Assembly: GCA_017451425.1 (NCBI GenBank)
Contig: JAFSPP010000011.1
Location: 26,510 to 90,509, forward strand
Reading direction: 5' to 3'
DNA: 64,000 bases
Origin: Clostridia bacterium
Lineage (GTDB): Bacteria > Bacillota > Clostridia > Oscillospirales > Acutalibacteraceae
Part shown: piece after piece, positions 4,872 to 23,120 of the stretch
Layout: every line of letters starts with the position of its first letter
How positions within the stretch are numbered: position 1 is the first letter of the stretch
Program-made: the position numbers and the translations under genes
Notes under the pieces: model-generated
Told to the model about the DNA's origin: nothing
Seen by the model: the letters and a program-made list of their open reading frames with translations, nothing else
Database searches by the model: none

Positions 4872-4880
4872 AAAAAATAC

Positions 4881-4909
4881 TTGAAATCTTTTTATATATA
4901 TTGTATTAT
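4881..4909 (+). promoter_or_regulatory. Putative sigma-A promoter for the pilin gene
   Basis: TTGAAA (4881-4886), a 17-nt spacer, then TATTAT (4904-4909). It lies about 135 nt upstream of the pilin start. Confidence 0.4.
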
Positions 4910-5043
4910 TTTTTTGATGCCAAAGCACATTTTGGTGTTGTTTAAGGACTTTAGCTTGTGAGGCACAGCACGAGCACTTAAAATAAAGGCATTGTTTAAA
5001 TTTCGTTAAAACAATATTTTTATTTTGAAGGGAGTTTTTTCAA

Positions 5044-5424: not shown

Positions 5425-5458
5425 TTTAGCTTTAACGTTTTAACCTAAAAAACTTTTT

Positions 5459-5498
5459 GAGCCTCGTGCTATTGTGCCAACAGCGCGAGGCTCTTTTA
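5459..5498 (+). terminator. Rho-independent terminator after the pilin gene
   Basis: GAGCCTCG(TGC) at 5459-5469 pairs with (GCG)CGAGGCTC at 5483-5493, followed by TTTT. Confidence 0.6.
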
Positions 5499-5542
5499 AG
5501 TAAGAAGTGACTTTTGTCACAGTGCTGAAAAGGGGATAAACA

Positions 5543-6376: not shown

Positions 6377-6524
6377 GCAAACGTTTCAGAACGCCCTGAT
6401 CGGCATTCCGTGCCCTGAAAACAGGGCTTTGTGGAATGTTTGCTTACCAAGCATTTCTTGGCAAAGTATTTTTTGCGCGTTTTTTTATTACGCGCGCGCA
6501 TATTTTAAGTAAAGGAGTGGTAAC

Positions 6525-7739: not shown

Positions 7740-7766
7740 TAATAAAGGAGGGAAAGAAAGAGTATT

Positions 7767-8660
7767 ATGATTACTTCCGTTTATGTTTCAAACGAAAAAA
7801 TACAGGTACTCACAGGCGAGAAGGATAAAAAGAATCGCCTGGATGTAAAAGCGGTTATGTACGCTACGCTTCCCGAAAAGGCCATGGCTAACGGTGTCAT
7901 TACCGACGAGCTTGGCGTGAAGGAAGCCGTTCAGAAGATCTGGGATAAGTACAATCTTCCGAAGAAGGACGTACATCTCGTTATTGACTCCGGCACAATC
8001 CTCAACAAGAAGGTTGCTTGCCCGGTAGTTCCGAAGGAGTCACTTCCGAATATCGTAAAAGATGAATTCAAAGATGTTGAAGGTTTTGCAAACTTCCTTT
8101 TCGACTACACTGTAATTGAAGACGGCCGCAATGGTGAGCCTCTGCTCTTCGCTAACGCTGTAGGTAAGGAACTTGTTTCTGCTTACGTTCGCGTTTTCAA
8201 CGGCCTTGGAATTTCAATCTCGAGAATCAACACAGGCATAAATGCTGAGATGGCTCTCATCGCAGCAAACCCTGCAACAGCTCATGACACACAGATCGTG
8301 GTCAACCTTGACCCGACAAGCCTTACATCAGTTCTTTACATCGATGGTAAGTACAGCTTCGCAAGCCGCAGCCGTCTCATCGAGGCCAGAGGTTCTGAGG
8401 CTTCACGTATGGAAATCGTTCGTGCACTTTCTTCACTCATTCAGTTCGCACGTTCCGAGAACTCCCAGAAGCCCGTTAAGGCAGTATACGTTTGCGGTAT
8501 GGTAGAGTCCGAAGCAGACCTTTGCCCGAAGATTTCGGCAATGCTCGGCTGCCCGGTATCAACTCTTCCCGCATGTGACAACATTACTTGCACTAAAGAC
8601 AGGAATAAGGCAGCTTTCCTTATGGCTGACTACACCTATGCTTTAGGCAATATGCTTTAA
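7767..8660 (+). CDS. pilM: PilM-like actin-fold pilus assembly protein
   Basis: 297 aa and soluble. The position directly after pilC and the overall pattern (N-terminal beta-strand start, ...LPxxxxxNGVIxD..., ...VxLVIDSG...) are typical of PilM. Confidence 0.65.
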   Translation: MITSVYVSNEKIQVLTGEKDKKNRLDVKAVMYATLPEKAMANGVITDELGVKEAVQKIWDKYNLPKKDVHLVIDSGTILNKKVACPVVPKESLPNIVKDEFKDVEGFANFLFDYTVIEDGRNGEPLLFANAVGKELVSAYVRVFNGLGISISRINTGINAEMALIAANPATAHDTQIVVNLDPTSLTSVLYIDGKYSFASRSRLIEARGSEASRMEIVRALSSLIQFARSENSQKPVKAVYVCGMVESEADLCPKISAMLGCPVSTLPACDNITCTKDRNKAAFLMADYTYALGNML

Positions 8661-8678
8661 GAAAGGAGCGTGTGATAT

Positions 8679-9398
8679 ATGGCTTTTAAGAAAAAAGATG
8701 CCAATCCGATGATGATTGACGGCAATACATCCGCTCCGGCTCCTGCTGCTCCTGCAGCAAAGGAGAAAAAGTCCAAGGTTAAATATCTTGAACCCAACGA
8801 AATGAACTTCTACGAGCAGTACAAGGTCGTAGTTGAAGGCAAGAAGAAGGACGTTGACCTCGCTAAGATTCTCAAGCCCCTGATTGCCGTACTCATAGTT
8901 GTTCTTGCAGTATTTGTTATCCTTGAAGCTATTCTTATCGGATTCAAGGCTAAGAATAAGTCACTTGATAAGTACATCAATGACCCGAACAACATCGCTT
9001 CCTACAACGAGGCGCTTGCTGTTAAGGAAGAGACAGAGACTGTTAATGCTGCCAAAGCAAACATGGAATCTCTTCTTACTGCAATTGATACATATCCGAA
9101 CGTCGGCAAGGACTTCTTTGCAAAAGTTGCTTCCGTAGCCACAAAGAACAATGTAACAATCACCAACTATTCATTCGCAAATGAGAACGGATGGCTGAAC
9201 CTGGCATGTAACGCAAGTGCTACCAAGGACATTTCTCAGTTCGTTCGTGATCTTGAAACACTCGGTCTCTTCGGTAATGTTAATTACACCGGATTCCAGA
9301 GTAATGGTGATGCCACAGGCGGCTATGGTTACTCAGTTGACTGCACTTGCCTTGGCGATCCTAACTATTCACAGGCCGCTGCAGGCACTGAAGGCTAA
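8679..9398 (+). CDS. PilN-like bitopic pilus assembly protein
   Basis: A short cytoplasmic N-terminus, one TM (ILKPLIAVLIVVLAVFVILEAILIGF), then a coiled-coil and a globular periplasm-side domain. It follows pilM. Assigned by synteny and topology only. Confidence 0.45.
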   Translation: MAFKKKDANPMMIDGNTSAPAPAAPAAKEKKSKVKYLEPNEMNFYEQYKVVVEGKKKDVDLAKILKPLIAVLIVVLAVFVILEAILIGFKAKNKSLDKYINDPNNIASYNEALAVKEETETVNAAKANMESLLTAIDTYPNVGKDFFAKVASVATKNNVTITNYSFANENGWLNLACNASATKDISQFVRDLETLGLFGNVNYTGFQSNGDATGGYGYSVDCTCLGDPNYSQAAAGTEG

Positions 9399-9415
9399 GA
9401 AAGGGGAGATTTAAA

Positions 9416-10003
9416 ATGACAGAAAAAGATAAGAAAACCTTAATTATTGCTGCTATTGCTCTCCTTATATTCGGTATCGCTTTCCTCGGTATCAGACCCG
9501 CAATAACAAATCTGAAAGAGGAAAGAGCAAAGAACGTAGAGCTTTCAGCACAGAAACAGACAATGCAGACAGAGATTAACTCTCTCCCTACATACAAGAC
9601 AAATCTTGAAACAGCGAAGACGAACTACAATGCAACGGCTTCCCGCGCATTTGCAGATCTTCCGAATGACAAGATTCACGACGTAGTTATTGACGAAATC
9701 GTTACTCCGCTCGGCCTTGATGTAAAAGCATTCCGCATTAACAGCATTGAACCTCTCGGTGTAAACAATTATGTTGTACCTTCAGCTGATGCAGGCGCTT
9801 CACCGGCTCTTGTTGCAGGCACAACAGACCTTGCTTATATTACTGTTGATGTAGTAGGCACACAGGAGCAGATAATTGCGCTTGTTGACAAACTTAATGC
9901 GACAGAGGGCACATACCTCTCAAACATTTCGTTCTCAACGGTTGCAGACAATGCTACGGTATCAGTTCCGTTCTATATGGTTCTTTCGGAGACATTTGAA
10001 TAA
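9416..10003 (+). CDS. PilO-like bitopic pilus assembly protein
   Basis: An N-terminal TM (LIIAAIALLIFGIAFLGI), a coiled-coil (NLKEERAKNVELSAQKQTMQTEINSL), then a C-terminal domain. Synteny is pilM-N-O. Confidence 0.5.
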   Translation: MTEKDKKTLIIAAIALLIFGIAFLGIRPAITNLKEERAKNVELSAQKQTMQTEINSLPTYKTNLETAKTNYNATASRAFADLPNDKIHDVVIDEIVTPLGLDVKAFRINSIEPLGVNNYVVPSADAGASPALVAGTTDLAYITVDVVGTQEQIIALVDKLNATEGTYLSNISFSTVADNATVSVPFYMVLSETFE

Positions 10004-10045
10004 TACGATTCTCTGAAGGATACTCCGATAAAACGAAAAGAGTTT

Positions 10046-10091
10046 GGCACAAGTTCCGGTTTTTTCCGGGGCTTGTGCCCTGTCTTTTTTT
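10046..10091 (+). terminator. Rho-independent terminator ending the pilD..pilO unit
   Basis: GGCACAAG (10046-10053) pairs with CTTGTGCC (10072-10079), with an inner CCGG/CCGG pairing, followed by a T-rich run (TGTCTTTTTTT). Confidence 0.6.
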
Positions 10092-10099
10092 ATAAGTCC

Positions 10100-10158
10100 A
10101 AAAAAAGTTAAAAAAATGTTAAAAAACTATTCACATTTTGATTTCTTTGATATATAAT
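10100..10158 (+). promoter_or_regulatory. Putative promoter with a phased A-tract (UP-like) element for the minor-pilin operon
   Basis: TTCACA (10130-10135), a 17-nt spacer, then TATAAT (10153-10158). Three A6-7 tracts start at 10100, 10110 and 10121, about one helical turn apart. Confidence 0.4.
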
Positions 10159-10269
10159 AGGTTCATAAAGCGTGGTAGTGTATCTACCCGCGGGACGCAC
10201 GAGAATTATTCATAATTGATTTTATGCATAATTTCAAATCCGGCTTCCAAATAAAGGAGGTAAACATTT

Positions 10270-11961
10270 ATGAGAGTATTGGGAAATAAAAAGGGTTCGG
10301 CACTGCTCTGGTGCATACTCCTGATTATTATTCTCACAATTCTTTTGGGTAGTGTACTTACGGCTACTTATGCCTATTACAACTACACCATGCGTACTGT
10401 TAAGAGACAGCAGGCCTATTTTACTGCTCGTTCTGCAGTGTCCATGCTTCTTGAGGAACTCACCTCTGAAGAGCAGGTAGCTACAAACGGCGAATATCTG
10501 GAGTCGTCCATTTCAGTGCTTCCTTCAAGAAAGGGCGCTGATCATGCCGTAACCGTAAGCGATTTCGGTTTCGGTGAAAAGATGGGTTCGGCTGAAGCTA
10601 CTCTTGTACGTAACGATGACGACGAAATTAATATTGAAGTAACGGCATATTATCCCGATAACATAAACGGTGAGAAGTATGTTATGAAGGCTACTGTTTG
10701 CCGCCAGCCGCTTTATTTCGGCGGTATTGCTGTTAAGCATCTTTCGCTTGACGGCAAGCTTACTCTTGGCGAAAACACAGACCTTTACTGGAACAATACG
10801 GATATTTTCAACACAGCCGGTAATGGTTCCTCTTTTAAGAATAATGGCGGCACTCTTTCCGTTAACGGTAACCTCGTTACAAAAGGAGATGCCACAATTA
10901 CGGCCGGTAATGTTGTTGCAGGCAGAAACTTCTATGGAACAGCCACATTCTCCGGTGATTCTCTTCATTCAAAGAAAATCTGGTCTCCGACAGAATATAT
11001 TATTTCTAACAAGACATTAAGAGTTGATGATGCTGAGAACACGGAGTACACGACAAACGCTATTAATACTCTCAAAAATATTACTAACTATACCATTAAA
11101 TATTGTAACAGCAGAGGCACAAGTGCTTTCGGTCCGAATCCCGTGCTTGCAGATATCTTAGGTGTTGATGTCGGCCAGCTTATGTCCGGTATTCCAATCA
11201 TCGGTAACATTATTTCTGATACAAATGATCAGTTTATGAAGGTTTCCGACTCAAATAACAGCGCTTTGTCCATCAGATACATTAAGCTTCTTTCAACATA
11301 CAAAGCAATTTCTGATGCGCTTGATAACGCTCCTTTGGTCCTGCAGCCAATGATTAATATTATTCGCGCCTTACCTACAACGCAGGCGGCAGCCAGTCTT
11401 ATGAGAGATTGCTACGATGCTCCTTGGATTGATTTCTCTTCATCTGATGAAGGCAACAGATCTGATGAGGTCGTACCTCTTACTTATCTCTTTGTTGACA
11501 GCAAACTCGGCGTCCGTGTTCAGTACGGCAGAGATCCGGGCAAAGCCAGTTTTATAGGTCAGATTACTGATAATATTTCTAATAATGTTGGCTCATTTAT
11601 CAACAGCGTTTTTGATATTCGCAATAAGCCCAGTTATCTTGTTGCTTATATGGAACCCAATTCTTATATCGAACTCGGCTATGGTTGCGGCAAGGGACAT
11701 GTTAACCCGAAGACAGGTGTTACAGAAAACAACAGCCGAAACAGAGGCACGCCACAGAACCTTGTTTTCCTTTATTCACTATATGGTGGAGATAACACAA
11801 CGGTTATCCTTCACGACGGCGTAACGGTTATAGGTGAGATTATCTGTGACAATCTTATTATCGAAGGCGATGCCAAGATAATTTACTCATCAATAAACGG
11901 CGGTCAGATAGCTAAACAGAAGATTGCTGAGTATTGGGCCGTATCAAATTATTCGGATTAA
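10270..11961 (+). CDS. PilX_N-domain pilus-associated protein, large (563 aa)
   Basis: The N-terminus KKGSALLWCILLIIILTILLGSVLT...RQQAYFTARSAV matches the PilX N-terminal pattern (GSAL, hydrophobic helix, QAFxAAEAG). It has no Glu+5 or canonical G|F cleavage site. The remainder is Asn/Gly/Thr-rich. Confidence 0.55.
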   Translation: MRVLGNKKGSALLWCILLIIILTILLGSVLTATYAYYNYTMRTVKRQQAYFTARSAVSMLLEELTSEEQVATNGEYLESSISVLPSRKGADHAVTVSDFGFGEKMGSAEATLVRNDDDEINIEVTAYYPDNINGEKYVMKATVCRQPLYFGGIAVKHLSLDGKLTLGENTDLYWNNTDIFNTAGNGSSFKNNGGTLSVNGNLVTKGDATITAGNVVAGRNFYGTATFSGDSLHSKKIWSPTEYIISNKTLRVDDAENTEYTTNAINTLKNITNYTIKYCNSRGTSAFGPNPVLADILGVDVGQLMSGIPIIGNIISDTNDQFMKVSDSNNSALSIRYIKLLSTYKAISDALDNAPLVLQPMINIIRALPTTQAAASLMRDCYDAPWIDFSSSDEGNRSDEVVPLTYLFVDSKLGVRVQYGRDPGKASFIGQITDNISNNVGSFINSVFDIRNKPSYLVAYMEPNSYIELGYGCGKGHVNPKTGVTENNSRNRGTPQNLVFLYSLYGGDNTTVILHDGVTVIGEIICDNLIIEGDAKIIYSSINGGQIAKQKIAEYWAVSNYSD

Positions 11962-11973
11962 GGGGGCTGCTTT

Positions 11974-12381
11974 ATGAAGAAACTTGATAATAAAGGTTTG
12001 ACTCTTGTTGAGCTTATACTCGCAGCAGTTATCCTTGCAATTTCCGGACTTATGCTTGCCACGACTTTCACATCTGCAATGAGAATTATGAGTCGTGCAA
12101 TACTTTACAAGAACGTCAGTGCAACAGCTGCAGAGACAGTTGAACTTGCCGAGGAACAGGAACCGGTCGAAAACTTTGTTTACGATGTTGACAGTTCCGA
12201 AAAGAACGGCACATTGACTATCACTTACAAGAAAGACAATGTTGATAGTACAACGACAATGAGCGGTCAGTACTATTTTGCAGAGGTCTCAAAAGATGAC
12301 GAGAGGGTCGGCCTGACTTACAAGGAGTTCCTTCCGAGTAACTTCAGTTACGACATTCCTGCGGCCCCTGTAGGGGATTAA
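11974..12381 (+). CDS. Minor type IV pilin / pseudopilin
   Basis: The N-terminus MKKLDNKG|LTLVELILAAVILAISGLMLA is a prepilin cleavage/methylation motif with Glu+5. Confidence 0.75.
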   Translation: MKKLDNKGLTLVELILAAVILAISGLMLATTFTSAMRIMSRAILYKNVSATAAETVELAEEQEPVENFVYDVDSSEKNGTLTITYKKDNVDSTTTMSGQYYFAEVSKDDERVGLTYKEFLPSNFSYDIPAAPVGD

Positions 12382-12405
12382 GTATACAGAAAGGACGAGT
12401 GACTT

Positions 12406-14928
12406 ATGAATATTTTTGAAATAAGAAAAAATAAACTCGGTATGACACTTGTGGAAATGGTTCTTTCCCTTGTAATCCTCGGTATACTTATGACTTCTAC
12501 TATGGGTATGGTAATATCGAGTAATCAGATTTTCATTTCAACAAGTAAAGCCGCAATTGACAAGCAGGTTGGTAACTACTCTTTCGATTTCATCGAAAAG
12601 GTTCTCCGTTACACAACACACATGTCAATCTACAATGAGGGCACTTCACCCAATGATTCCAATCTTCAGTCTCTCTCATTGAATAAGACTGATAATACCA
12701 ATGATTCCGGCATACTTATGTTTAAGCGCGCTGAGGATAACGATCCTTACTCTCTTTACGATAATGGTTTCTACGGCAATAGAACAATCCAGTATTCTGT
12801 TCATAAGGTCGGTAAAAAGAGCCAGCACGTAAAACTTAAAGTAACTGTCTTCAGAGAGGGCAGAGCGGTTTATTCGAGAGAATCCGTTGTCAAGTGCTTG
12901 AACCTTAACCTTGTTGCAATAGGTGACGGTGCAAATCCGATTGTTGATAAGTCATCTGCCGATGCAGTAAACCAGACAATCACATTCTCCGTTGATGAAA
13001 AGCTTCTTTCCGGCGGTAAGAATGCTTACTCACTTGAGTTCAAGGTTTCCGAGTTCATGGGTAAGTACAACAAGATTCAGAAAGCTTATGTTGCCGATAT
13101 AGGTAAGGCTTATACAAAGTATATCAGCGGTAACTATGATGCTGAGGAAAACCCCGGTATCCGCGGTACAACTGATGCTTACAACGGCAGAATTGAAGCC
13201 GAGACATACGCAGCCAGAATGAATGCCTATACAAAGATTGTATTCGGCGACGGAGCGACACCTACAAACTATGATCCCGATCGTATTGAAAACTGTGTAA
13301 ACCTTCGTGCTTACTATCAGCAGGAAATCAATGATCTCCTTAAATTTGATCTTAAATCTTCAAATGCCGCAGGTTTTACCAATGGTAACTTTACCAACAA
13401 TATTATCGGTACAACATCTTATAAGCTTCATAATGGTGATGCCTTCTACGGCGTAGTTGCGACCAAGGAAGAGATGTACTTTGGTTTCATGCTCAACCAT
13501 TATGACAAGAATAACGACGGCACTATTTCAAAGGCTGAATATCCTCAGTTTGAGGGCGACTCCTTCTTCAAGGGCACATCCATGGATTCTTATTTAAAGA
13601 ATACCAGCGGCAACCAGATGGTTATCATGTGCTACTTCAAGGACAATGTTGCCAATGATAACTACAAGGGCCTTGTAGCAAAGACAACCCAGGATGTTTA
13701 CTCCTTCAACGGATCTGTTTCGCACTCTGCTGCAGCGAATGGATCAGCAACTAAACCCGGAGCATCAACAATCCAAGATTACAGCGGAAATAACAGTGAT
13801 GTACCTTCCGGTACAAGTTATCTTAATACCTCCAAGGTATATATCTACTATTCAGATAACAATTACAGAGCCGGTGGCACAAATCTCAACTATGACCGTT
13901 CTGGTAATATTATTTCCGGATACACATATCCCGGCACGGCAATTGAAAATTATCTCAAGAATACACTCGGTGCAAAGAATGCTACTCCTTCTTTTAATGT
14001 AGCATCACATATTTCAGGTTCGGATCATAACGATACTAAGAATTGCTCTTATACCGCACCGACCGACCTTACAGAAGGCTGGTATTATTCCAAGGTTCCG
14101 TATTACAGTGCAGGTGCTGCTAATACTAAATATTGTTTCTGTCTCTTCTATCTCCAGGCTATTGATCAGACAGAAGAGGCTGACGGCCAGGAAATAGTAC
14201 TGAATCCGAATAAAATTGCCATCTTCAGAGGCGGTAAAATTAATTACTCGTTTGCCAACAGCTCGGGTGTATTAGAAACTATTTACTATAAACTGGGTTC
14301 ATTCACTTATGACCAGGCGCAGTTTACAGTAAGCCACGAAGCACAGGGCGGCAACACCACTTCCACTGACTTCCTTGAGTACACAGCACACCAGTATGTT
14401 GACTATGCACTCTACGGAACAGACTGGAACTCCTGGTTCAATGCGAACCCTTCAGGTCTTATTAACCAGCTTGCGAATGTTGTTACGAATTTCGTTAACA
14501 CAATTCGTGGTAAGGCCATAAATAAGAACATAACCAGCATAAGTACGGCAAATGCAGTTCAGTCGCTTGGTAACATCGGACAGCACAACATTTCTACTGC
14601 GATGGACAATCAGGCTGCATCTTATAACCTTGCTTGGTGTGTTTACAGCCCGAAGCGCGGCACATGGTACTATCTGCCCGCCAGATCAACAAGACTTTCA
14701 GGTCTTGCTTCTTCCTTCTCGTTCTCATCAAAGAAGGACGCACCGACACCGCTTGATGCTGACCTTGATGACGGTTCCTGGAGATCCTCCAGCGCAATGG
14801 TAAGTGATATCGAGATGCGTAAACTGTCAAGCAGCGGTCTCTTTGGACTTGTTGATACGACCTCTGATGTACTTTGGGTAGCACTTCCTACAGGTAACAC
14901 AATCGATCTTGATTCCGTTACCGGTTAA
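12406..14928 (+). CDS. Giant modular pilin-like protein (840 aa), candidate tip protein or adhesin
   Basis: The N-terminus ...RKNKLG|MTLVEMVLSLVILGILM has a prepilin-type signal with Glu+5, followed by about 800 aa of Asn/Ser/Thr/Tyr-rich extracellular sequence. This includes a canonical EF-hand-like loop DKNNDGTISKAE at nt 13504-13539. Confidence 0.7.
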   Translation: MNIFEIRKNKLGMTLVEMVLSLVILGILMTSTMGMVISSNQIFISTSKAAIDKQVGNYSFDFIEKVLRYTTHMSIYNEGTSPNDSNLQSLSLNKTDNTNDSGILMFKRAEDNDPYSLYDNGFYGNRTIQYSVHKVGKKSQHVKLKVTVFREGRAVYSRESVVKCLNLNLVAIGDGANPIVDKSSADAVNQTITFSVDEKLLSGGKNAYSLEFKVSEFMGKYNKIQKAYVADIGKAYTKYISGNYDAEENPGIRGTTDAYNGRIEAETYAARMNAYTKIVFGDGATPTNYDPDRIENCVNLRAYYQQEINDLLKFDLKSSNAAGFTNGNFTNNIIGTTSYKLHNGDAFYGVVATKEEMYFGFMLNHYDKNNDGTISKAEYPQFEGDSFFKGTSMDSYLKNTSGNQMVIMCYFKDNVANDNYKGLVAKTTQDVYSFNGSVSHSAAANGSATKPGASTIQDYSGNNSDVPSGTSYLNTSKVYIYYSDNNYRAGGTNLNYDRSGNIISGYTYPGTAIENYLKNTLGAKNATPSFNVASHISGSDHNDTKNCSYTAPTDLTEGWYYSKVPYYSAGAANTKYCFCLFYLQAIDQTEEADGQEIVLNPNKIAIFRGGKINYSFANSSGVLETIYYKLGSFTYDQAQFTVSHEAQGGNTTSTDFLEYTAHQYVDYALYGTDWNSWFNANPSGLINQLANVVTNFVNTIRGKAINKNITSISTANAVQSLGNIGQHNISTAMDNQAASYNLAWCVYSPKRGTWYYLPARSTRLSGLASSFSFSSKKDAPTPLDADLDDGSWRSSSAMVSDIEMRKLSSSGLFGLVDTTSDVLWVALPTGNTIDLDSVTG

Positions 14929-14964
14929 TTGCAGATTTCTGCAAATCCAATAAAACGAATAGCA

Positions 14965-14996
14965 GGGGCGGGCTTTTGTCCGCCTCTGTTTCTTTT
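14965..14996 (+). terminator. Probable Rho-independent terminator after the minor-pilin operon
   Basis: GGGGCGGGC (14965-14973) pairs with GTCCGCCTC (14978-14986) with two G-U pairs and a TTTT loop, followed by TGTTTCTTTT. Confidence 0.5.
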
Positions 14997-15084
14997 GTGG
15001 TTTGACAAATAGGTATTATGTAATAAAATAATTGTATACAAAATGGTTATAATCTTTGAAAGTTTTGCAAGGAGGTGAGCAGGG

Positions 15085-15831
15085 ATGAAGCTTAATTATG
15101 CAGGCAGAAGAGCGTTTGAAGTGTTTACGTTTATTCTGGACTGGATTCTTATTCTGGCCCTGCTCGTCAGCCTTTATAATATATTTATGCGTAAAGTGCG
15201 CCATGAACCTCTGCCAATGCTTTTCGGCAGGGGATATGCGGTAACGGTTTCGGGTTCCATGGAGCCGACAATTGCCATAGGCGACATTGTGTGGATTAAA
15301 CAGCAGCCTAAGTATGATGTGGGCGATATTATCGTGTTTGTGGATAAGGATTCGCCTAATCAGTCTCTGGTAACGCACAGGATTGTCGGTGTTACGGAGG
15401 AGGGCTATATCACCAAGGGCGATAATAACAATACGGCGGATTCCGGTGTTGTGGAGCCACATTACATTAAGGGTGCTGCGACGCATCTTATTCATTACTT
15501 CGGAGCTACGTTGCTGTTCATTCAAAAGCCGATTGGCATGTTCCTGATGCTGCTTTTAGCATTGCTGCTTATTGAGCTTCCGTACCGTATCAGGACGAGG
15601 TACAGGGAAGAGACCATGGCAGCGCTTGATAACATGGTCCACAGGGTCGAAATACAGGGCAAAGAGGTTATTGCGCCTGATCGTACCCTTGAGTTCAATG
15701 ACGGTTCTTATAGGGCGCCACAGAAGACGAAGAGGCAGATTGACTTCGAGCGCGAACTCGACTGGAGGCGCCGCAAGAAGCAGAAGCGGAAGATATTTGT
15801 GCCTGATGAGGGTCACTGGGATATTGACTAG
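15085..15831 (+). CDS. Signal peptidase I, SipW/archaeal-eukaryal (S26B) type, with a long charged C-terminal tail
   Basis: Has the catalytic Ser context VSGSMEPTIAIGDIVWIK, the segments THRIVGV and GYITKGDNN, and a second TM. About 85 extra C-terminal residues are rich in R/K/E (RRRKKQKRK). Confidence 0.75.
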   Translation: MKLNYAGRRAFEVFTFILDWILILALLVSLYNIFMRKVRHEPLPMLFGRGYAVTVSGSMEPTIAIGDIVWIKQQPKYDVGDIIVFVDKDSPNQSLVTHRIVGVTEEGYITKGDNNNTADSGVVEPHYIKGAATHLIHYFGATLLFIQKPIGMFLMLLLALLLIELPYRIRTRYREETMAALDNMVHRVEIQGKEVIAPDRTLEFNDGSYRAPQKTKRQIDFERELDWRRRKKQKRKIFVPDEGHWDID

Positions 15832-15874
15832 TTTTTGCTTTGGTTATTTTTAGAAAGTTGACTTGAATTTTTTG

Positions 15875-15903
15875 TTGACTTTGTCGGTTTATGGTGTTAA
15901 AAT
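15875..15903 (+). promoter_or_regulatory. Sigma-A promoter of the T-box operon
   Basis: TTGACT (15875-15880), a 17-nt spacer, then TAAAAT (15898-15903). A second copy of GTTGACTT lies 17 nt upstream (15857-15864). Confidence 0.55.
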
Positions 15904-15909
15904 TTTGGC

Positions 15910-16187
15910 ATAATAAATAAAGGCGATGACGAAGACGGTTTTGAGGACCTCTTTCAGAGAGCAGACGGTTGGTGCGAGTCTGCAGTGGGAATCAAGTTGA
16001 CCTATCACTTCAGCAGCTGAGCCCTTGAACACATTTGTTAGTAGGGGACTACGTGAAAGCTACGTCAGTGCGAAGGGGTTGATGGACCCTGAGGGGTAAC
16101 GGGCAATAGCCAATCGTTACAATTTGAGTGGTACCGCGGGTAACTTGTTTTATTCGTCTCAAAGCATTTGCTTTGAGGCGTTTTTTT
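15910..16187 (+). promoter_or_regulatory. T-box riboswitch leader (tRNA-sensing transcription attenuator), probable Ile (AUC) specifier
   Basis: GA/K-turn GCGAUGA (15923-15929). AG bulge AGAGAG (15956-15961). Distal loop GGUUGGUGCGA (15967-15977). Specifier context CCU-AUC-A-CUUC (codon at 16004-16006), closed by GAAG at 15931-15934. T-box sequence AAUUUGAGUGGUACCGCGGG (16121-16140). Terminator CGTCTCAAAGCA/TGCTTTGAGGCG plus T7 (16155-16187). The terminator's 5' arm CTCAAA can pair instead with the T-box TTTGAG. Confidence 0.85.
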
Positions 16188-16258
16188 ATTCCCCTCATCT
16201 GCCCCTTTGGGGCACCTTCTCCCCCGGGAGAAGGCATAACAGGAAAGGAATGGTTGTT

Positions 16259-18517
16259 ATGGAAACTAAACAGGAAATCGTTGAGGTAGTGCAGAGAATC
16301 AAGGAGATGAGAGATATCTCCGGCTTTTCTGTCGCTGACATGGCTGAGAAGACCGAACTTACCGAGGAACAGTACCTTGAGTATGAATCCGGTAAGGTGG
16401 ATCTGCCGTTTACGTTCGTGCATAAGTGTGCGCTGGCGTTCGGTATCGGTATTGCTGACTTGCTTGAAGGCCAGTCGGCAAGGCTTTCTTCATACACCGT
16501 GACGAGAAGGAACGGTGGCCTTGTAACGGCAAAAGAGGACGGCATTACCATTCAGAACCTGGCTTCAATGTTCAAGGACAGACTTGCCGACCCGTATTTC
16601 TGTATTTACGAGTATGACGAGTCCCTTCAGGACAAGCCCATAAAGCTTGTTGAGCATGCGGGCCATGAGTTCAACTTCGTTATTAAGGGATCACTGAAGG
16701 TTCAGGTCGGTGACCATGTCGAGACCCTTCACTCAGGTGACTCCATTTACTTTAAATCCTCAATACCTCACGGCGAGCTGGCGGTAGACGGCGCGCCCTG
16801 TAAATTCCTTTCCATAATTTTAAACTCCGACGTTACGGAGGAGCTGTACAAAGAACAGGCTATCCGCCGTGCGGCTCAGTCTGAAAAGCTCGTTGTTGAG
16901 AAGTTTGTTGAGTGCACTGAAGATGAGGAAGGCGCTCTTGTTGACATTAAGTTCCATGACGAGGATAAATTCAACTTCGCTTTCGACGTTGTCGATGAAA
17001 TCGCGAAGAACAAGCCCGAAAAGGTGGCTATGATTCACCTTGATAAGGACAAGAATGAGACTAAGTTCACCTTCAGGGATATGAAGGACCTGTCAAACCA
17101 GGCTGCGAACTACTTTACATCGCTCGGTATCCGCAAGGGCGACCGCGTAATGCTGGTATTAAAGCGCAGATATGAGTTCTGGGTTTCAATTCTTGCACTG
17201 CATAAAATAGGGGCAATTGCGATTCCTGCGACACACCTTCTGAAGGACCATGACTTTGAGTATAGGTTCAATGCTGCAGAAGTTAAGGCGATTATCTGCA
17301 CATGTGATGATGATACGCCTTCATCGGTTGATCGTGCTTGTGCGTCTTGTCCTTCGGTTGAGACGAAGATTATTGTGGGAGCTTCACGCTCGGGCTGGCA
17401 CGATTTTGATGCAGAGTTTAAGCTGTTCAGCCGCAGATATCTGCGTACGGCTGAGTCGCCCTGCGGTGATGATCCCATGCTTATGCTCTTCTCTTCGGGA
17501 ACATCGGGTTATCCGAAGATGGTACTTCATTCCTGCAAGTATCCTCTGGGACACTTCCATACCGCGAAGTACTGGCATTGTGTAAGAAACAACGGTGTAC
17601 ACCTTACAATTTCAGATACCGGCTGGGGCAAGGCTCTCTGGGGCAAGCTTTATGGCCAGTGGATGTATGAGGGTGCAGTATTCGTATATGACTTTGAGAG
17701 ATTCCATGCAGCAGACATTCTGCCGCTGTTTGCGCAGTATAAGATAACTACATTCTGCGCACCTCCGACCATGTACCGTATGCTTATCAAGGAGAACCTG
17801 ATGAACTACGATCTGTCCTCAATCGAGCATGCTACGGTTGCCGGTGAGGCACTGAACCCTGAGGTCTTCTATCAGTTCAAGAGGGCGACAGGTCTTGAAC
17901 TTATGGAGGGCTTCGGTCAGACCGAGACTACGCTTACGGTCGCGAACCTTGTCGGTATGACGCCGAAGCCGGGTTCAATGGGCAAACCCTGCCCGCTTTA
18001 CGACGTTGTTTTGCTTGATCCTTCGGGCAAAGAGGTCGGCGTAGGCGAAAACGGCGAAATCTGCGTGAAGACAAAGAACGGAGCACCCTGCGGACTCTTC
18101 CTCGGATACTACAAGGACGAGGAGGCCACAAAGGCCGCATGGCATAACGGTTACTACCATACAGGTGATATTGCCTGGAAGGATGAGGATGGATACTTCT
18201 GGTACGTCTCACGTGTTGACGATGTCATCAAGTCATCCGGTTACCGCATCGGCCCGTTCGAGATTGAAAACGTTATCATGGAGCTTCCTTATGTTCTTGA
18301 GTGCGGCGTAACTGCCGCTCCTGATGAGGTAAGGGGACAGGTAGTCAAGGCGTGTATCGTTCTGGTTCCCGGAACCGAAGGCACTGACGAACTGAAGAAG
18401 GAAATTCAGAATTACGTCAAGAAAAACACCGCTCCTTACAAATATCCGCGAATTGTCGAGTTCAGAACTGAACTTCCTAAAACTATTAGTGGAAAAATCA
18501 TAAGAAAAGAATTATAA
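16259..18517 (+). CDS. Fusion protein: XRE-type HTH + cupin domain + AMP-forming medium/branched-chain acyl-CoA synthetase (ACSM/MACS-like)
   Basis: Start chosen at ATG 16259, 9 nt after GGAAAGGA; the ORF-track start at 16124 lies inside the T-box. HTH: FSVADMAEKTELTEEQYLEYESGK. Cupin: HAGHEFNFVIKGSLKVQVGDHVETLHSGDSIYFKSSIPHG. Adenylate-forming motifs: FSSGTSGYPKMV, YHTGDIAWKDEDGYFWYVSRVDDVIKSSGYRIGPFEIE and ISGKIIRKEL. It is one uninterrupted frame. Confidence 0.8.
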   Translation: METKQEIVEVVQRIKEMRDISGFSVADMAEKTELTEEQYLEYESGKVDLPFTFVHKCALAFGIGIADLLEGQSARLSSYTVTRRNGGLVTAKEDGITIQNLASMFKDRLADPYFCIYEYDESLQDKPIKLVEHAGHEFNFVIKGSLKVQVGDHVETLHSGDSIYFKSSIPHGELAVDGAPCKFLSIILNSDVTEELYKEQAIRRAAQSEKLVVEKFVECTEDEEGALVDIKFHDEDKFNFAFDVVDEIAKNKPEKVAMIHLDKDKNETKFTFRDMKDLSNQAANYFTSLGIRKGDRVMLVLKRRYEFWVSILALHKIGAIAIPATHLLKDHDFEYRFNAAEVKAIICTCDDDTPSSVDRACASCPSVETKIIVGASRSGWHDFDAEFKLFSRRYLRTAESPCGDDPMLMLFSSGTSGYPKMVLHSCKYPLGHFHTAKYWHCVRNNGVHLTISDTGWGKALWGKLYGQWMYEGAVFVYDFERFHAADILPLFAQYKITTFCAPPTMYRMLIKENLMNYDLSSIEHATVAGEALNPEVFYQFKRATGLELMEGFGQTETTLTVANLVGMTPKPGSMGKPCPLYDVVLLDPSGKEVGVGENGEICVKTKNGAPCGLFLGYYKDEEATKAAWHNGYYHTGDIAWKDEDGYFWYVSRVDDVIKSSGYRIGPFEIENVIMELPYVLECGVTAAPDEVRGQVVKACIVLVPGTEGTDELKKEIQNYVKKNTAPYKYPRIVEFRTELPKTISGKIIRKEL

Positions 18518-18600
18518 TATTCAGTATTCTCTTGTTATTGTTCTTGTTTTTATTGATTTGTTTTGTTTTTAATTTGTTTTAATTTTAGTTACGTGTTGGG

Positions 18601-19281
18601 TTGTTTATGAGTAATTCTGTTAAACGAGTGACCTTGTTTGCCGGGCATTACGGCAGCGGAAAGACGAATTGTGCGATAAATTATGCTTTGCACCTGCGTT
18701 CTTCGGGGCTGCCTGTTGCCATTGCGGACCTGGATGTTGTAAACCCGTATTTCCGTACTGTGGACAGTATGGCTGAACTTGTTTCGGCAGGTATCAGGGT
18801 TGTGGCGTCTGATTACGCGGCTTCCAATGTCGATTTCCCTGCATTGCCGGGTGAGATGTATTCTCTGTTTGAAGACAAATCGTCTTACGCGGTAATTGAT
18901 CTGGGCGGAGACGACAGGGGAGCGCTGGCTCTGGGAAGGTACAGGGATCTGATACTTGAGGAGAATGATTTTAATAATTTCCTGGTGATTAACAAGTATC
19001 GTCCGCTGACTGCCACTCCTGCACTCTGTATGGAGGTCATGGAGGAGATTTCCTCCGCAGCGGGAATTCCGTTTACCGGAATAGTAAATAACTCTAATCT
19101 GGGCGCTGAGACGACCTGGGAGGACATTGAAAAGAGCATTCCTTATGCGAAAGCCGTGTCTTCCATGTCGGGACTGCCTATAGTGATGACGACTTATATG
19201 GATTCACTAACCGTTTTAGGTGCCCTTGATATACCCTTGTTCGGGTTATCGCTTCAGAAAAAAGTCTTCGAGGAGGATTGA
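18601..19281 (+). CDS. P-loop NTPase (MinD/ParA/CooC-like superfamily), function unknown
   Basis: Walker A AGHYGSGKTN near the N-terminus, and a DLGGD Walker-B-like segment. 226 aa. TTG or ATG (18607) start. It sits between the synthetase and the oxidoreductase genes. Confidence 0.45.
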   Translation: MFMSNSVKRVTLFAGHYGSGKTNCAINYALHLRSSGLPVAIADLDVVNPYFRTVDSMAELVSAGIRVVASDYAASNVDFPALPGEMYSLFEDKSSYAVIDLGGDDRGALALGRYRDLILEENDFNNFLVINKYRPLTATPALCMEVMEEISSAAGIPFTGIVNNSNLGAETTWEDIEKSIPYAKAVSSMSGLPIVMTTYMDSLTVLGALDIPLFGLSLQKKVFEED

Positions 19282-19284
19282 GAT

Positions 19285-19491
19285 ATGGGAAAAGTCAGCT
19301 TTAAGACGGATGTCTGCAAAGGCTGCGGCCTCTGTGTGGCCGCCTGTCCCAAGAACATTCTTGTATTGGATGAAAATAAACTTAACGCGAAGGGCCATCA
19401 TCCCGCGACCTGCGTGGATATGGACGCCTGTGTGGGCTGCGCTTCATGCGCAATTATGTGCCCTGACTGCGTTATTACGGTAGAGAGGTGA
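19285..19491 (+). CDS. 2-oxoacid:ferredoxin oxidoreductase delta subunit (2x[4Fe-4S] ferredoxin)
   Basis: 68 aa with two CxxCxxCxxxCP motifs (CKGCGLCVAACP and CVGCASCAIMCP). Confidence 0.8.
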   Translation: MGKVSFKTDVCKGCGLCVAACPKNILVLDENKLNAKGHHPATCVDMDACVGCASCAIMCPDCVITVER

Positions 19492-19498
19492 GTGTGCA

Positions 19499-20560
19499 AT
19501 GGGCGAAAAAGTATTGATGAAAGGTAACGAGGCAATTGCCGAGGCCGCTATTCGCGCAGGCTGCAGACATTACTTCGGATACCCGATTACACCTCAGACT
19601 GAGGTCGCGGCATATATGTCTAAAAGAATGCCGAAAATAGGGGGAACTTTCCTCCAGGCCGAGTCCGAAATCGCCGCCATCAACATGGTTATAGGCGTTG
19701 CGGCAACCGGCAAGAGAGTAATGACATCCTCATCTTCACCGGGAATATCCTTAAAGCAGGAGGGTATCTCATACCTTGCCGGCTGCGATCTTCCCGCACT
19801 GGTTGTAAATGTTGAGCGCGGCGGCCCCGGACTCGGCGGCATCCAGCCCTCACAGTCAGACTACTGGCAGGCCACAAAGGCCGGCGGCCACGGTGACTAC
19901 CACAATATCGTTTTAGCTCCCGCGTCTGTTCAGGAGATGGCTGCCCTTACAATCAAGGGCTTTGAGCTTGCTGACAAGTACAGCATGGTCACCATGATCC
20001 TTGCCGACGGCACAATGGGCCAGATGATGGAACCCGTTGAGATTGACGATATTGAGATAAAGACAGTTGAAAAGCCTTGGGCTCTTACCGGTACCGGTAT
20101 GGCTCGCTCGCACAACATTGTTAATTCACTTTATCTGAAGCCTGACCTTCTTGAGCAGAAGAATTTTGAAAGATATGAGAAATATGCGCAGATAGAGAAA
20201 TCTGAGGTCATGTATGAGGAATACATGATGGATGATGCCGATATCTGCCTTGTAGCTTTCGGTATTACCGCACGTGTTGCGAAGAATGCCATAGCTGAGG
20301 CTCGTGCCAAGGGCATTAAGGTAGGACTTCTTCGTCCGATTACCCTGTGGCCGTTCCCGTCACAGGCTCTGGCAGCACGCGCTTCGCAGTGCAAGGCTTT
20401 CATTTCGGTCGAGATGAATATGGGACAGATGATTGATGATGTTAAACTTGCAATTTCATGTTCACGTCCCGTTTACCTCTGCAACCGTGTAGGCGGTATG
20501 ATCCCGTCACCGGAAGAGGTACTCGACAAGATTATTTCTGTTTCGGGAGGTGCTGATTGA
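19499..20560 (+). CDS. 2-oxoacid:ferredoxin oxidoreductase alpha subunit (VorB/KorA type)
   Basis: 353 aa. The N-terminus LMKGNEAIAEAAIRAGCRHYFGYPITPQTE is the classic POR/VOR/KOR alpha-subunit opening. Confidence 0.85.
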   Translation: MGEKVLMKGNEAIAEAAIRAGCRHYFGYPITPQTEVAAYMSKRMPKIGGTFLQAESEIAAINMVIGVAATGKRVMTSSSSPGISLKQEGISYLAGCDLPALVVNVERGGPGLGGIQPSQSDYWQATKAGGHGDYHNIVLAPASVQEMAALTIKGFELADKYSMVTMILADGTMGQMMEPVEIDDIEIKTVEKPWALTGTGMARSHNIVNSLYLKPDLLEQKNFERYEKYAQIEKSEVMYEEYMMDDADICLVAFGITARVAKNAIAEARAKGIKVGLLRPITLWPFPSQALAARASQCKAFISVEMNMGQMIDDVKLAISCSRPVYLCNRVGGMIPSPEEVLDKIISVSGGAD

Positions 20561-21315
20561 TGGCAGTCGTATTTGATAAACCGCATGCTCTGACAGATGC
20601 CACAATGCACTACTGCCCGGGCTGTACACACGGTATAATTCACAGACTCATAGCCGAGGTTATTGATGAGCTCGGTATTGAGGGCGATACCATAGGTGTA
20701 GCATCCGTCGGATGCTCCGTTATGGCTTATGACTACTTTAATGTGGACTTCGTCCAGGCGGCTCACGGCAGGGCTCCGGCCGTTGCCACGGGCGTCAAGA
20801 GGTCGGATCCGTCTAAAGTAGTATTCACTTACCAGGGAGACGGAGACCTTGCCGCCATAGGCACGGCTGAGACCGTTCATTCCGCCGCGCGCCGTGAGAA
20901 TATCACCGTCATCTTCGTAAATAACGCTATTTACGGTATGACAGGCGGTCAGATGGCGCCGACAACCCTTCCGGGTATGGTTACGCAGACTTCTCCTTAC
21001 GGCCGAAATGTTGAGGCCGTAGGCTATCCCGTAAAGGTCTGCGAAATGCTTTCTGAGATTGACGGCGCCGCTTATCTTGAGCGTGTAGCGGTCAACAATG
21101 TCGCAAATGTCAGAAAGGCAAAGGCGGCTATTAAAAAGGCTTTTGAGTATCAGCTTTCCGGTAAGGGCTTCTCACTTGTTGAGATTGTTTCAACCTGCCC
21201 GACAAACTGGGGCGTTTCACCTGAGAAGGCGCTGTCATTTGTTGATACGGATATGATTCCTTACTATCCTCTCGGAGTTTACAAGGATATCTATGCAGAG
21301 GAGGATGCAGGATGA
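20557..21315 (+). CDS. 2-oxoacid:ferredoxin oxidoreductase beta subunit (TPP-binding)
   Basis: CPGCTHGI near the N-terminus and the TPP motif GDGDLAAIG...NNAIYGMTGGQ. Its start overlaps the alpha-subunit stop. Confidence 0.85.
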   Translation: MMAVVFDKPHALTDATMHYCPGCTHGIIHRLIAEVIDELGIEGDTIGVASVGCSVMAYDYFNVDFVQAAHGRAPAVATGVKRSDPSKVVFTYQGDGDLAAIGTAETVHSAARRENITVIFVNNAIYGMTGGQMAPTTLPGMVTQTSPYGRNVEAVGYPVKVCEMLSEIDGAAYLERVAVNNVANVRKAKAAIKKAFEYQLSGKGFSLVEIVSTCPTNWGVSPEKALSFVDTDMIPYYPLGVYKDIYAEEDAG

Positions 21316-21842
21316 GTACTTTGAATATTCTCTTCGCAGGCTTCGGCGGACAGGGCATACTGTTCTCCGGCAAATTCATGGCCTATGAGGGTCTTCTTGC
21401 GGACAAGCACGTCTCATGGCTCCCGTCCTACGGACCGGAGATGAGAGGCGGTACCGCAAACTGTTCCGTTATCATCTCTGATGAGGAGGTCGGTTCACCG
21501 ATTGTCGACAAGCCCGATGTGCTTGTTGTCATGAACCTCCCGTCACTTGATAAATACGAGGACGCAGTAGTCCCCGGCGGCAAGATCTTTGTCGACTGCT
21601 CTCTCATCGAGCGCAAGGTTGAGCGTACGGATGTATCTGTTTACTATGTACCCGCTACGGGCCTTGCTTCGGAGAAGAAGATTCCGACACTTGCCAACAT
21701 GATCATTACCGGAAAGATGCTGAAGGAACTCGGTTTCTCGCTTGATTCGGTTGACGCAGTACTCGGCAAGATCGTCTCTACACGTCACCAGGATCTCCTT
21801 TCGGTAAACAAGGACGCGATTCGCGCAGGTTATGAACTTTAA
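21312..21842 (+). CDS. 2-oxoacid:ferredoxin oxidoreductase gamma subunit
   Basis: 176 aa. [19 protein letters not shown]...[20 protein letters not shown] is the conserved gamma-subunit signature. It overlaps the beta-subunit stop. Confidence 0.85.
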
Positions 21843-21856
21843 TTGGGGGTTTTAAT

Positions 21857-22924
21857 ATGCTTGATATCAGAATTGAGAAAACTACATCACCCAAGGCTAA
21901 GCCGGCTGATGAGTCCAAACTCGGTTTCGGTCAGATCTTCTCTGACCACATGTTCATCATGGACTATTCCGAGGGTAAATGGCACGATGCCAGAATCGTA
22001 CCTTTCCAGAATCTTTCCTACAGCCCCGGAACAGCTGTTTTCCACTATGGATGTGAGATATTTGAAGGTCTTAAGGCTTACCGCACCGCACAGGGCAATG
22101 TACAGCTTTTCAGACCCATTGAGAACGTACGCAGAATGAACAATTCCGCTGAGCGTCTCTGCCTTCCTCAGATGGATGAGTCAGACATGCTTCAGGCTAT
22201 TGTTGAGTTCGTAAAGGTTGAGAAGGACTGGGTTCCTCACACCGAGGGCACATCTTTATACCTTCGTCCGTTCCTCCTCGGCGTTGACGAGACACTGGGC
22301 GTTCACACAATCCAGAAGGCACAGTTTATTATCATCGCTTCTCCTTCGGGCAGCTACTATCCCGAGGGTATCAACCCCGTCAAGATTATGATTGAGACCG
22401 AGGACGTCCGTGCTGTCCGCGGCGGTACAGGCTATGCCAAGTGCGGCGGTAACTACGCGGCTTCCACGAGAGCAGGCCACAAGGCTGAGCTCCAGGGTTA
22501 CTCACAGGTACTCTGGCTCGATGGTGTTGAGCAGAAGTATATTGAGGAAGTAGGCGCCATGAACGTAATGTTCAAGATTGACGGCACTGTCGTCACTCCC
22601 AAACTCCTCGGTTCCGTTCTTCCCGGTATCACGAGAAAGTCATGCATTGAGCTTCTCAGGGACAAGGGCATTCCGGTTGAGGAGAGAAAAATCTCCGCTG
22701 ACGAACTCTTTGACGCCCTTCGCGCAGGCAAGCTCGAAGAGGCCTGGGGCACAGGTACGGCAGCTGTTGTATCTCCCATAGGCGAGCTCTCATACAAGGG
22801 CGAGAAGTACACCGTAAATGATTTCAAAATCGGTGACACAACACAGTGGCTCTACGATACTCTTACGGGTATGCAGTGGGGCAAGATAGAGGACAACAAG
22901 GGCTGGATTGTACCCGTTGATTAA
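21857..22924 (+). CDS. ilvE: Branched-chain amino acid aminotransferase (fold type IV, long form)
   Basis: 355 aa. Contains FGQIFSDHMF, EGLKAYR, RPENNxxRM-like IENVRRMNNSAERL, YLRPF, GGTGYAKCGGNYAAS and EEVGAMNVMF. Confidence 0.9.
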   Translation: MLDIRIEKTTSPKAKPADESKLGFGQIFSDHMFIMDYSEGKWHDARIVPFQNLSYSPGTAVFHYGCEIFEGLKAYRTAQGNVQLFRPIENVRRMNNSAERLCLPQMDESDMLQAIVEFVKVEKDWVPHTEGTSLYLRPFLLGVDETLGVHTIQKAQFIIIASPSGSYYPEGINPVKIMIETEDVRAVRGGTGYAKCGGNYAASTRAGHKAELQGYSQVLWLDGVEQKYIEEVGAMNVMFKIDGTVVTPKLLGSVLPGITRKSCIELLRDKGIPVEERKISADELFDALRAGKLEEAWGTGTAAVVSPIGELSYKGEKYTVNDFKIGDTTQWLYDTLTGMQWGKIEDNKGWIVPVD

Positions 22925-23003: not shown

Positions 23004-23010
23004 ATTAGTG

Positions 23011-23120
23011 TACTTTGTAACTGACGGATCAGTGGGGTTTACCACATGGGAGCAAAGTAAAGTAATATGTCGACCGTCTGGGCAGTCCCTCAGTACACGA
23101 GGGACTGCCTTGTTTATTTT
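23011..23120 (+). promoter_or_regulatory. ZTP (pfl-motif) riboswitch with an intrinsic-terminator expression platform
   Basis: P1 is ACTTTG/CAAAGT. Conserved ACUGACGG, P2 GUGG/CCAC and GGGAGC are present. After a linker comes CGACCGUCUGGGCA. The pseudoknot GACGG:CCGUC covaries relative to the consensus GGCGG:CCGCC. The terminator GGCAGTCCCTC/GAGGGACTGCC (23081-23109) plus a T-run shares GGCA with the aptamer's 3' end. Confidence 0.8.

Follow-up and report, generated by a model that had tools for sequence, protein, structure and literature searches.

Canonical T-box leaders (Rfam family RF00230), such as the isoleucine-specific leaders of ileS and of branched-chain amino acid genes in Firmicutes, are composed of a Stem I with a kink-turn (K-turn), a specifier loop, an AGAGA bulge and a distal loop, and of a UGGN bulge with competing antiterminator and terminator folds. 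Uncharged cognate tRNA induces genes that restore the supply of that amino acid, and the cargo is an aminoacyl-tRNA synthetase, a transporter or a de novo pathway. A leader with the same parts and the same logic lies in a 64,000-nucleotide stretch of DNA from a Clostridia bacterium of the Acutalibacteraceae (assembly GCA_017451425.1, contig JAFSPP010000011.1, positions 26,510 to 90,509), referred to here as the window. Its cargo departs from the canonical one, being an acyl-CoA ligase, a ferredoxin oxidoreductase and a branched-chain aminotransferase (BCAT). Taken as a whole, the locus is probably an isoleucine T-box-controlled operon that salvages isoleucine from 2-methylbutyrate. Relatives of this locus depart further from canonical T-boxes in having serial, separate isoleucine and valine T-boxes, each with its own ligase paralogue.

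Since the 1960s, anaerobes of the rumen and gut have been recognized as requiring or assimilating isobutyrate, 2-methylbutyrate and isovalerate. Reductive carboxylation of 2-methylbutyrate has been invoked for isoleucine synthesis in the rumen methanogen Methanobrevibacter ruminantium, and physiological documentation of that route is cited in the same work (PMC2812497). The chemistry proposed for the window matches this route and the classical labelling results. At the enzyme level, the reverse oxidoreductase reaction was described as 'not proven yet' in a Prevotella paper of 2020 (PMC7709123). The enzyme VOR (EC 1.2.7.7) has the same four-subunit layout as the window oxidoreductase, dependent on thiamine pyrophosphate (TPP) and iron-sulfur clusters, and the window alpha subunit belongs to the VorB subfamily, though the archaeal VOR models are only distantly related to it (PRK08366, 69 bits). 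Among described ligases, MacsMa, the medium-chain acyl-CoA synthetase of Methanosarcina acetivorans, favors 2-methylbutyrate, the substrate that is taken through both half-reactions, and its Trp259 is critical; with propionate, the adenylate forms but the CoA thioester is not completed (PMC10455477). MbcS, the methylbutyryl-CoA synthetase of Staphylococcus aureus, is an AMP-forming enzyme that activates 2-methylbutyrate and isobutyrate and supplies primers for branched fatty acids (PMC10026030, PMC11167679).

An earlier reading of the window from its letters alone (the sequence-only reading) had proposed a complete T-box leader ahead of the operon, and this is borne out by a full-length alignment to the RF00230 covariance model (CM; E=1.1e-20). 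The same alignment places the isoleucine specifier AUC, and no different codon, exactly where it had been proposed, and recovers the predicted CUUC strand paired with GAAG beside the K-turn (Table 1). The antiterminator and terminator had been described as mutually exclusive, and they are: the 3' strand of the former (16153-61) overlaps the 5' strand of the latter (16155-65). The UGGU of the T-box bulge would pair with the ACCA at the 3' end of the tRNA. The terminator is more stable than shuffled sequence (z = -2.87; 1 of 200 shuffles folds equally well), as expected of a default-off leader. Thermodynamic folding is uninformative for both the whole leader (z = -1.5) and Stem I alone (z = +1.2). 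Because Stem I relies on non-canonical motifs, the CM and covariation were used for it. Over 85 leaders of three classes, its covariation score is 0.50, compared with 0.22 in shuffles (0 of 500 reach it) and at most 0.15 in slid registers. Pairing is kept in 100% of these leaders for helix 1, 78% for helix 4 and 96% for helix 5, with many double changes; helix 2 was the criterion by which the 85 leaders were picked and is excluded from this evidence. The leader is a conventional transcription-attenuating T-box riboswitch, ordinary in kind. Its promoter (Table 1) is a strong one, and orthologous leaders are likewise preceded by promoters (TTGACA-17-TATAAT). The window promoter also overlaps a direct repeat, GTTGACTT, at 15857-15881, whose two copies are 17 nucleotides apart and whose second copy is the -35 box.

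The specifier is conserved well beyond the window. The species-representative genomes of GTDB were searched, and 599 of 600 examined candidate stretches encode a relative of the synthetase, so that it occurs in at least 599 species. The locus comparisons made here cover the best 80 of these relatives (numbered with the prefix L), which come from gut and rumen Clostridia of the Oscillospiraceae, Acutalibacteraceae, Lachnospiraceae and Ruminococcus, together with one Erysipelotrichaceae isolate. The closest synthetase relative among the matches listed, at 84% identity, is from a metagenome-assembled genome (MAG) of Candidatus Limimonas. The sequence-only reading had drawn on labelling work in rumen cellulolytic bacteria; no sign was found that the source organism is one, and its nearest named relative is the horse-faeces MAG Candidatus Limimonas coprohippi. 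The invariant T-box motif AGUGGUACCGCG lies approximately 90-330 nucleotides upstream of the synthetase gene in 76 of the 80 loci, and two of the four loci without it have contigs that end upstream of the gene. ATC falls in one column block of a structure-blind leader alignment, and AUC occupies the specifier in 71-73 of 74 orthologous leaders. The three specifier columns of the isoleucine class are 100%, 99% and 99% conserved, compared with 53% for the base before and 47% for the base after. Because the codon columns are constant while their flanks vary, the alignment indicates selection on the codon itself, not shared ancestry. The conserved purine expected after the specifier is present in the window (A16007), but that A is found in only 47% of the orthologous leaders.

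Seven plus-strand genes follow the leader, tightly packed with short or overlapping junctions. The gene list of the sequence-only reading (synthetase, P-loop protein, oxidoreductase delta, alpha, beta and gamma subunits, and ilvE) was matched in all seven members by profile searches. Its identification of an AMP-forming acyl-CoA synthetase also holds, but the helix-turn-helix (HTH, XRE type)-cupin module at the N-terminus of this protein had been overlooked. The synthetase gene has the ribosome-binding site AGGAAAGGA at 16241-49; an alternative ATG at 16250 would give 755 amino acids. IlvE passes both BCAT equivalog cut-offs of NCBIfam. Among the oxidoreductase subunits, alpha is the only one above the cut-off of a named model, and its delta, beta and gamma partners are encoded beside it. 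The window sequence has no hairpin terminator in the gap between the synthetase and P-loop genes, nor after ilvE. The operon is bounded by a SipW-like signal peptidase gene upstream and by a separate ZTP riboswitch (23007-23090) heading a pur operon downstream.

Table 1. Promoter, leader elements and genes of the operon in the window.
Feature	Position	Strand	Details
Promoter, sigma-70 type	15875-15903	+	TTGACT / 17-nt spacer / TAAAAT, extended TG; 10/12 matches
T-box leader RF00230	15917-16164	+	full-length CM match, model positions 1-219/219; 91.2 bits, E=1.1e-20
Stem I	15923-16017	+	CM alignment; K-turn GAUGA 15925-29, AGAGA (AG) bulge 15956-60
Stem I distal loop	15967-74	+	contains GGUUGGUG; CM alignment
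Helix beside specifier	15931-34 with 16008-11	+	GAAG paired with CUUC; CM alignment; adjoins GAUGA K-turn
Specifier codon AUC (Ile)	16004-16006	+	CM alignment; next base A16007
Antiterminator	16125-16161	+	UGAG 16125-28, bulge UGGUACC 16129-35, GCGGG 16136-40; pairs with UUCGU-CUCA, UUCGUCUCA, 16153-61
T-box sequence	16127-40	+	AGUGGUACCGCGGG; carries UGGN bulge
Intrinsic terminator	16155-16187	+	11-bp stem 16155-65 with 16170-80, AUUU loop, U7 at 16181-87
HTH(XRE)-cupin-AMP-forming acyl-CoA synthetase	16259-18517	+	752 aa; Pfam HTH_19, Cupin_2, AMP-binding, AMP-binding_C
SIMIBI-class P-loop NTPase (predicted)	18607-19281	+	224 aa; Walker A GHYGSGKT; weak CbiA match
Oxidoreductase delta subunit	19285-19491	+	68 aa; 2x[4Fe-4S] ferredoxin
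2-oxoacid:ferredoxin oxidoreductase alpha subunit, VorB subfamily	19499-20560	+	NF005507, 542 bits (cut-off 399); POR_N and PFOR_II
Oxidoreductase beta subunit, TPP-binding	20557-21315	+	no NCBIfam family at its cut-off
Oxidoreductase gamma subunit	21312-21842	+	PF01558
IlvE, branched-chain aminotransferase, class IV type II	21857-22924	+	NF009897, 461 bits (cut-off 307); TIGR01123, 387 bits (cut-off 250)

From these parts we infer the substrates of the operon, its reductive direction and its antitermination by tRNA-Ile. When uncharged tRNA-Ile accumulates, it would stabilize the antiterminator and allow RNA polymerase to read through into the seven genes. The synthetase would then convert exogenous 2-methylbutyrate to 2-methylbutyryl-CoA, the four-subunit ferredoxin-dependent oxidoreductase would reductively carboxylate this thioester to 2-oxo-3-methylvalerate, and IlvE would transaminate the 2-oxoacid to isoleucine. 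The sequence-only reading had offered the same conversion of branched acid to isoleucine. It is supported by the conservation of AUC, the likeness of the ligase to MacsMa, the valine-linked paralogue of the ligase found in relatives, and the VorB and BCAT cut-offs passed.

The gene order synthetase, P-loop, delta, alpha, beta, gamma, ilvE is repeated wherever downstream sequence suffices (P-loop gene at 61 loci, alpha at 60, ilvE at 44). In most loci the first synthetase (ACS1) is followed by a further 2.6 kb, which encodes a paralogous HTH-cupin synthetase (ACS2) and includes a separate promoter and T-box for it. The T-box motif precedes ACS2 in 55 loci, and in approximately 50 of them the specifier is GUA, rarely GUC, both of which encode valine. 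Locus L043 shows this serial layout, with T-boxes at 7651-7896 and 10324-10571, and it is shared by approximately 50 of L010-L080. The ACS2 and P-loop genes of L043 overlap, and the oxidoreductase genes and ilvE come next, so that at this locus the oxidoreductase and ilvE are part of the valine unit. This linkage of ACS2 and its valine T-box ties the oxidoreductase to branched-chain substrates. The window is the minority, single-synthetase version, where the isoleucine T-box stands directly ahead of the entire operon. The ligase unit can also stand alone: L008 and L022 have the isoleucine T-box and ACS1, and no P-loop, oxidoreductase or ilvE gene within 10 kb downstream.

Approximately 30 loci have a nearby T-box that reads CUC or CUG (leucine), where only the synonymous third position varies. 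At the three loci examined, the genes behind the leucine T-box encode a LeuA-like protein and a third AMP-forming synthetase, which is joined to a TIM barrel and may be an isovalerate-related ligase. These loci are L077:3349-7578, L049:3346-7537 (minus strand) and L011:10165-11850. The LeuA-like synthase is divergent (319 bits against a cut-off of 532). The fusion, which follows this synthase in L077 and L049, is an 825-838-amino-acid protein with a xylose-isomerase-like TIM barrel; its synthetase is PRK12583-like, of another clade, and 25% identical to the window synthetase.

For practical purposes, AMP-forming synthetases run only in the direction of the thioester, and catabolic routes save ATP by using ADP-forming enzymes, kinases or CoA transferases. 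The biosynthetic direction is favored because a signal of isoleucine starvation should not induce a pathway that consumes isoleucine, because a fermentative route would not spend ATP on a ligase that runs to the thioester, and because a separate ligase goes with each of the isoleucine, valine and leucine sensors. The opposite account is that BCAT and the oxidoreductase work oxidatively and the synthetase scavenges acids, with the products feeding branched fatty acids or a Stickland-type fermentation. 2-Oxoacid:ferredoxin oxidoreductases are reversible, and the best NCBIfam match of the synthetase is MbcS, the enzyme known for supplying branched fatty-acid primers. Against this, induction upon uncharged tRNA-Ile would be self-defeating, the ligase would waste ATP that fermentation would conserve, and the one-to-one pairing of specifier and ligase points to amino-acid supply. 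A lipid or catabolic role as the main function is unlikely, though some of the acyl-CoA may secondarily go to lipids.

The ligase domain of the synthetase aligns with MacsMa (PDB 3ETC) at 651 bits and 54.9% identity over 526 residues. The two are alike throughout the catalytic domain, including the pocket Trp259 of MacsMa (TAKYW), which is retained as W439. MacsMa differs in being archaeal, in lacking the HTH-cupin module, and in a role and regulation that are not tied to a T-box. MbcS resembles the window synthetase as an AMP-forming ligase and as its best-scoring NCBIfam family. It serves branched fatty-acid synthesis rather than amino acids and is without the HTH-cupin fusion; judged by its score (below), MbcS is a relative and not an ortholog.

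The window protein is proposed to be a 2-methylbutyrate-CoA ligase of the isoleucine-linked ACS1 type. Its sequence identity is higher to ACS1 proteins (66%) than to ACS2 proteins (59%). Discriminating positions were defined as those at least 90% conserved within each of ACS1 and ACS2 with a residue that differs between the groups (n=7), and the window synthetase has the ACS1 residue at 7 of 7. Just one of the seven lies in the catalytic domain, namely Gly457 of ACS1, which is Ala in ACS2 and lies in core motif A4 (SDTGW-G-K). MacsMa also has Gly at this position. By motif alignment to Val310 of acetyl-CoA synthetase, Gly457 may be an acyl-pocket residue. The bulkier Ala of the valine-linked ACS2 would fit the smaller C4 acid isobutyrate, and Gly457 would fit the C5 acid.

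The most serious rival also makes isoleucine. There are reports that clostridia make isoleucine from propionate, and the window synthetase could form propionyl-CoA, with the oxidoreductase as a 2-oxobutyrate synthase whose product enters the ordinary ilv pathway and ends at IlvE. An isoleucine specifier would fit this route equally, MacsMa-type enzymes adenylate propionate, and the specificity of the oxidoreductase is assigned from context. The ligase evidence nevertheless favors the branched acid, since MacsMa does not finish the CoA thioester with propionate and 2-methylbutyrate is its productive substrate. Moreover, the orthologous oxidoreductase shares a valine T-box unit with the paralogous ligase in most genomes; because only an isobutyrate route makes sense for valine, the shared enzyme must handle branched acyl-CoAs. 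In addition, none of ilvBN, ilvC or ilvD is found within the operon. The propionate route is therefore judged quite improbable, and salvage from 2-methylbutyrate is preferred.

For the oxidoreductase itself, we infer the substrate range and the in vivo reductive direction from context (isoleucine and valine T-boxes, BCAT and ligase) and from regulation. A different assignment would make it a 2-oxoglutarate or pyruvate synthase that serves the glutamate donor or central carbon, with a synthetase for acetate- or succinate-like acids and an incidental link to branched chains. The delta and beta subunits have OGOR and Oor subunits as their best named NCBIfam relatives, and the best PDB match of alpha, 1yd7, is followed by 8ys5, a 2-oxoglutarate synthase. 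The OGOR and Oor scores are, however, far under their cut-offs (48 vs 125 and 137 vs 364 bits). Alpha passes the VorB subfamily model alone, scoring 254 bits against a cut-off of 579 for 2-oxoglutarate synthase alpha. The isoleucine and valine T-boxes, the MacsMa-like ligase and the BCAT would have no obvious logic around such an enzyme, and this assignment is very improbable.

Several observations weigh against the salvage of isoleucine from 2-methylbutyrate as set out here. The 'VorB' model NF005507 is a subfamily label and not an equivalog, and the best named relatives of the delta and beta subunits are those given above. The synthetase scores 446 bits with MbcS (NF047394), below the equivalog cut-off of 850. 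The T-box is not called by a default Rfam scan at the gathering threshold: its score is 1.8 bits short of the 93 required, and it was detected by a scan with permissive filters. Orthologous leaders score 68-95 bits. In L023, a regular-expression search reads a lysine or glutamate specifier, and the CM places AUC canonically with an insertion, so that the register is ambiguous (AAA or AUC). Lastly, in two-synthetase genomes the oxidoreductase and ilvE lie behind the valine T-box, and isoleucine starvation alone may induce only ACS1. The simple scheme, in which a shortage of isoleucine turns on every step, applies only where there is a single synthetase, as in the window; two-synthetase genomes would need cross-talk or a basal level of oxidoreductase expression.

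L023 is unusual in another respect. It has three T-boxes (3042-3292, 5715-5964 and 8451-8702), one of them directly ahead of the P-loop gene. The first and third both have AAUCU at the specifier site, which gives AAA or GAA in the standard register and AUC in a shifted one.

The P-loop protein belongs to a family in which every named homologue is annotated 'hypothetical protein'. An AlphaFold2 model built from a 30-sequence alignment has a pLDDT of 85. The folds closest to it, those of the ATPase-type HypB metallochaperone and of signal recognition particle GTPases, are generic SIMIBI matches with a TM score of only ~0.5. On this model, the protein is a SIMIBI-class NTPase. As a guess, it could be a maturation or accessory factor for the iron-sulfur and TPP enzyme encoded next to it.

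The HTH(XRE)-cupin module comprises residues 1-225 of the synthetase (16259-16930) and is PuuR-like; the fusion is found in at least 599 species. PuuR-type regulators have the same order of HTH and cupin, and the N-terminal 185 residues match the PuuR model end to end but weakly (26.8 bits vs a cut-off of 211). The cupin also aligns with the HppE cupin and keeps an HppE-like triad (His133/Glu137/His171). Positions that distinguish ACS1 from ACS2 are 16-fold enriched in the module (13 of 225 residues vs 2 of 527 elsewhere, p=7e-6). Because these positions concentrate there, the comparison suggests that the module recognizes something particular to each paralogue. BirA is a known enzyme-repressor fusion in which an adenylate-forming enzyme is joined to an HTH. 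The window synthetase is a similar fusion, and it differs in the fusion partner and the domain order.

Operators of a PuuR type were not apparent. Across the loci no operator is shared, the inverted repeats close to the promoters do not exceed what shuffled controls give, and the window lacks such repeats. One subclade (L048, L049, L055, L056, L068 and L073) has inverted repeats that bracket the -10 box and transcription start of both T-box units. Its palindromes differ between the isoleucine unit (TTGTGATAAT...ATTATCACAA) and the valine unit (TGGTATT...AATACCA) and are possible paralogue-specific operators. As general HTH operators, these candidates were rejected because they are confined to a single subclade and, over all loci, do not rise above shuffled sequence.

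Tentatively, the HTH-cupin module may make the synthetase a one-component sensor, either as a BirA- or PuuR-like autoregulator or as a domain for allosteric feedback. In that case the operon would combine two signals, the charging of tRNA-Ile read by the T-box and the availability of a specific branched acid, or the level of the end product, read by the fused module. The enrichment of distinguishing positions, the His/Glu/His triad and the palindromes of the subclade support this reading. It is weakened by the lack of an operator shared between loci or found in the window, and on balance it is possible rather than probable. If it is true, the ligand or operator to which the synthetase is tuned would differ from one paralogue to the next.

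The searchable literature contains no paper that puts these genes under T-box control, though an earlier mention in T-box databases (TBDB, RegPrecise) or in further papers is possible. It also contains no description of the HTH-cupin/acyl-CoA synthetase fusion. Such genes are absent from the regulons given in two T-box surveys (PMC2494555, PMC3766115). The riboswitch is ordinary and the chemistry classical; within the searchable literature, the content of the regulon is without precedent. In that literature, the Firmicutes genes for branched-acid assimilation and the in vivo direction of the 2-oxoacid oxidoreductases have never been pinned down. Here, the regulation itself would assign direction and substrate, with an isoleucine sensor on one ligase, a valine sensor on its paralogue, and both linked to one oxidoreductase and transaminase. 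The design, present in at least 599 species of gut and rumen Clostridia, supplies gene candidates for a route that labelling studies have documented since the 1960s. These are testable gene targets for the supplementation of ruminants with branched acids, and they bear on cross-feeding between proteolytic and fibre-degrading gut bacteria. They could also improve the prediction of amino-acid auxotrophy for genomes that seem to be without the ilv pathway.

The neighboring genes are of other kinds. The ZMP/ZTP riboswitch downstream (RF01750, 61 bits) has its own promoter-like site and terminator (region 23007-23110), an ordinary arrangement. It is followed by a purine operon with purE at 23135, purF at 23659, purM-like at 25085, purN-like at 26139 and purL at 31236. 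Upstream, 1492-15831 is a type IV pilus-like cluster, which includes large proteins without a Pfam or NCBIfam match, for example those at 10270-11961 (563 amino acids) and 12406-14928 (840 amino acids). The cluster encodes a prepilin peptidase (5543), PilC/GspF (6525), and PilM-like (7767) and PilN-like (8679) proteins. An STT3/PglB-type oligosaccharyltransferase (1492-3594) lies in its upstream part, and the SipW-like signal peptidase (15085-15831) stands at its end.

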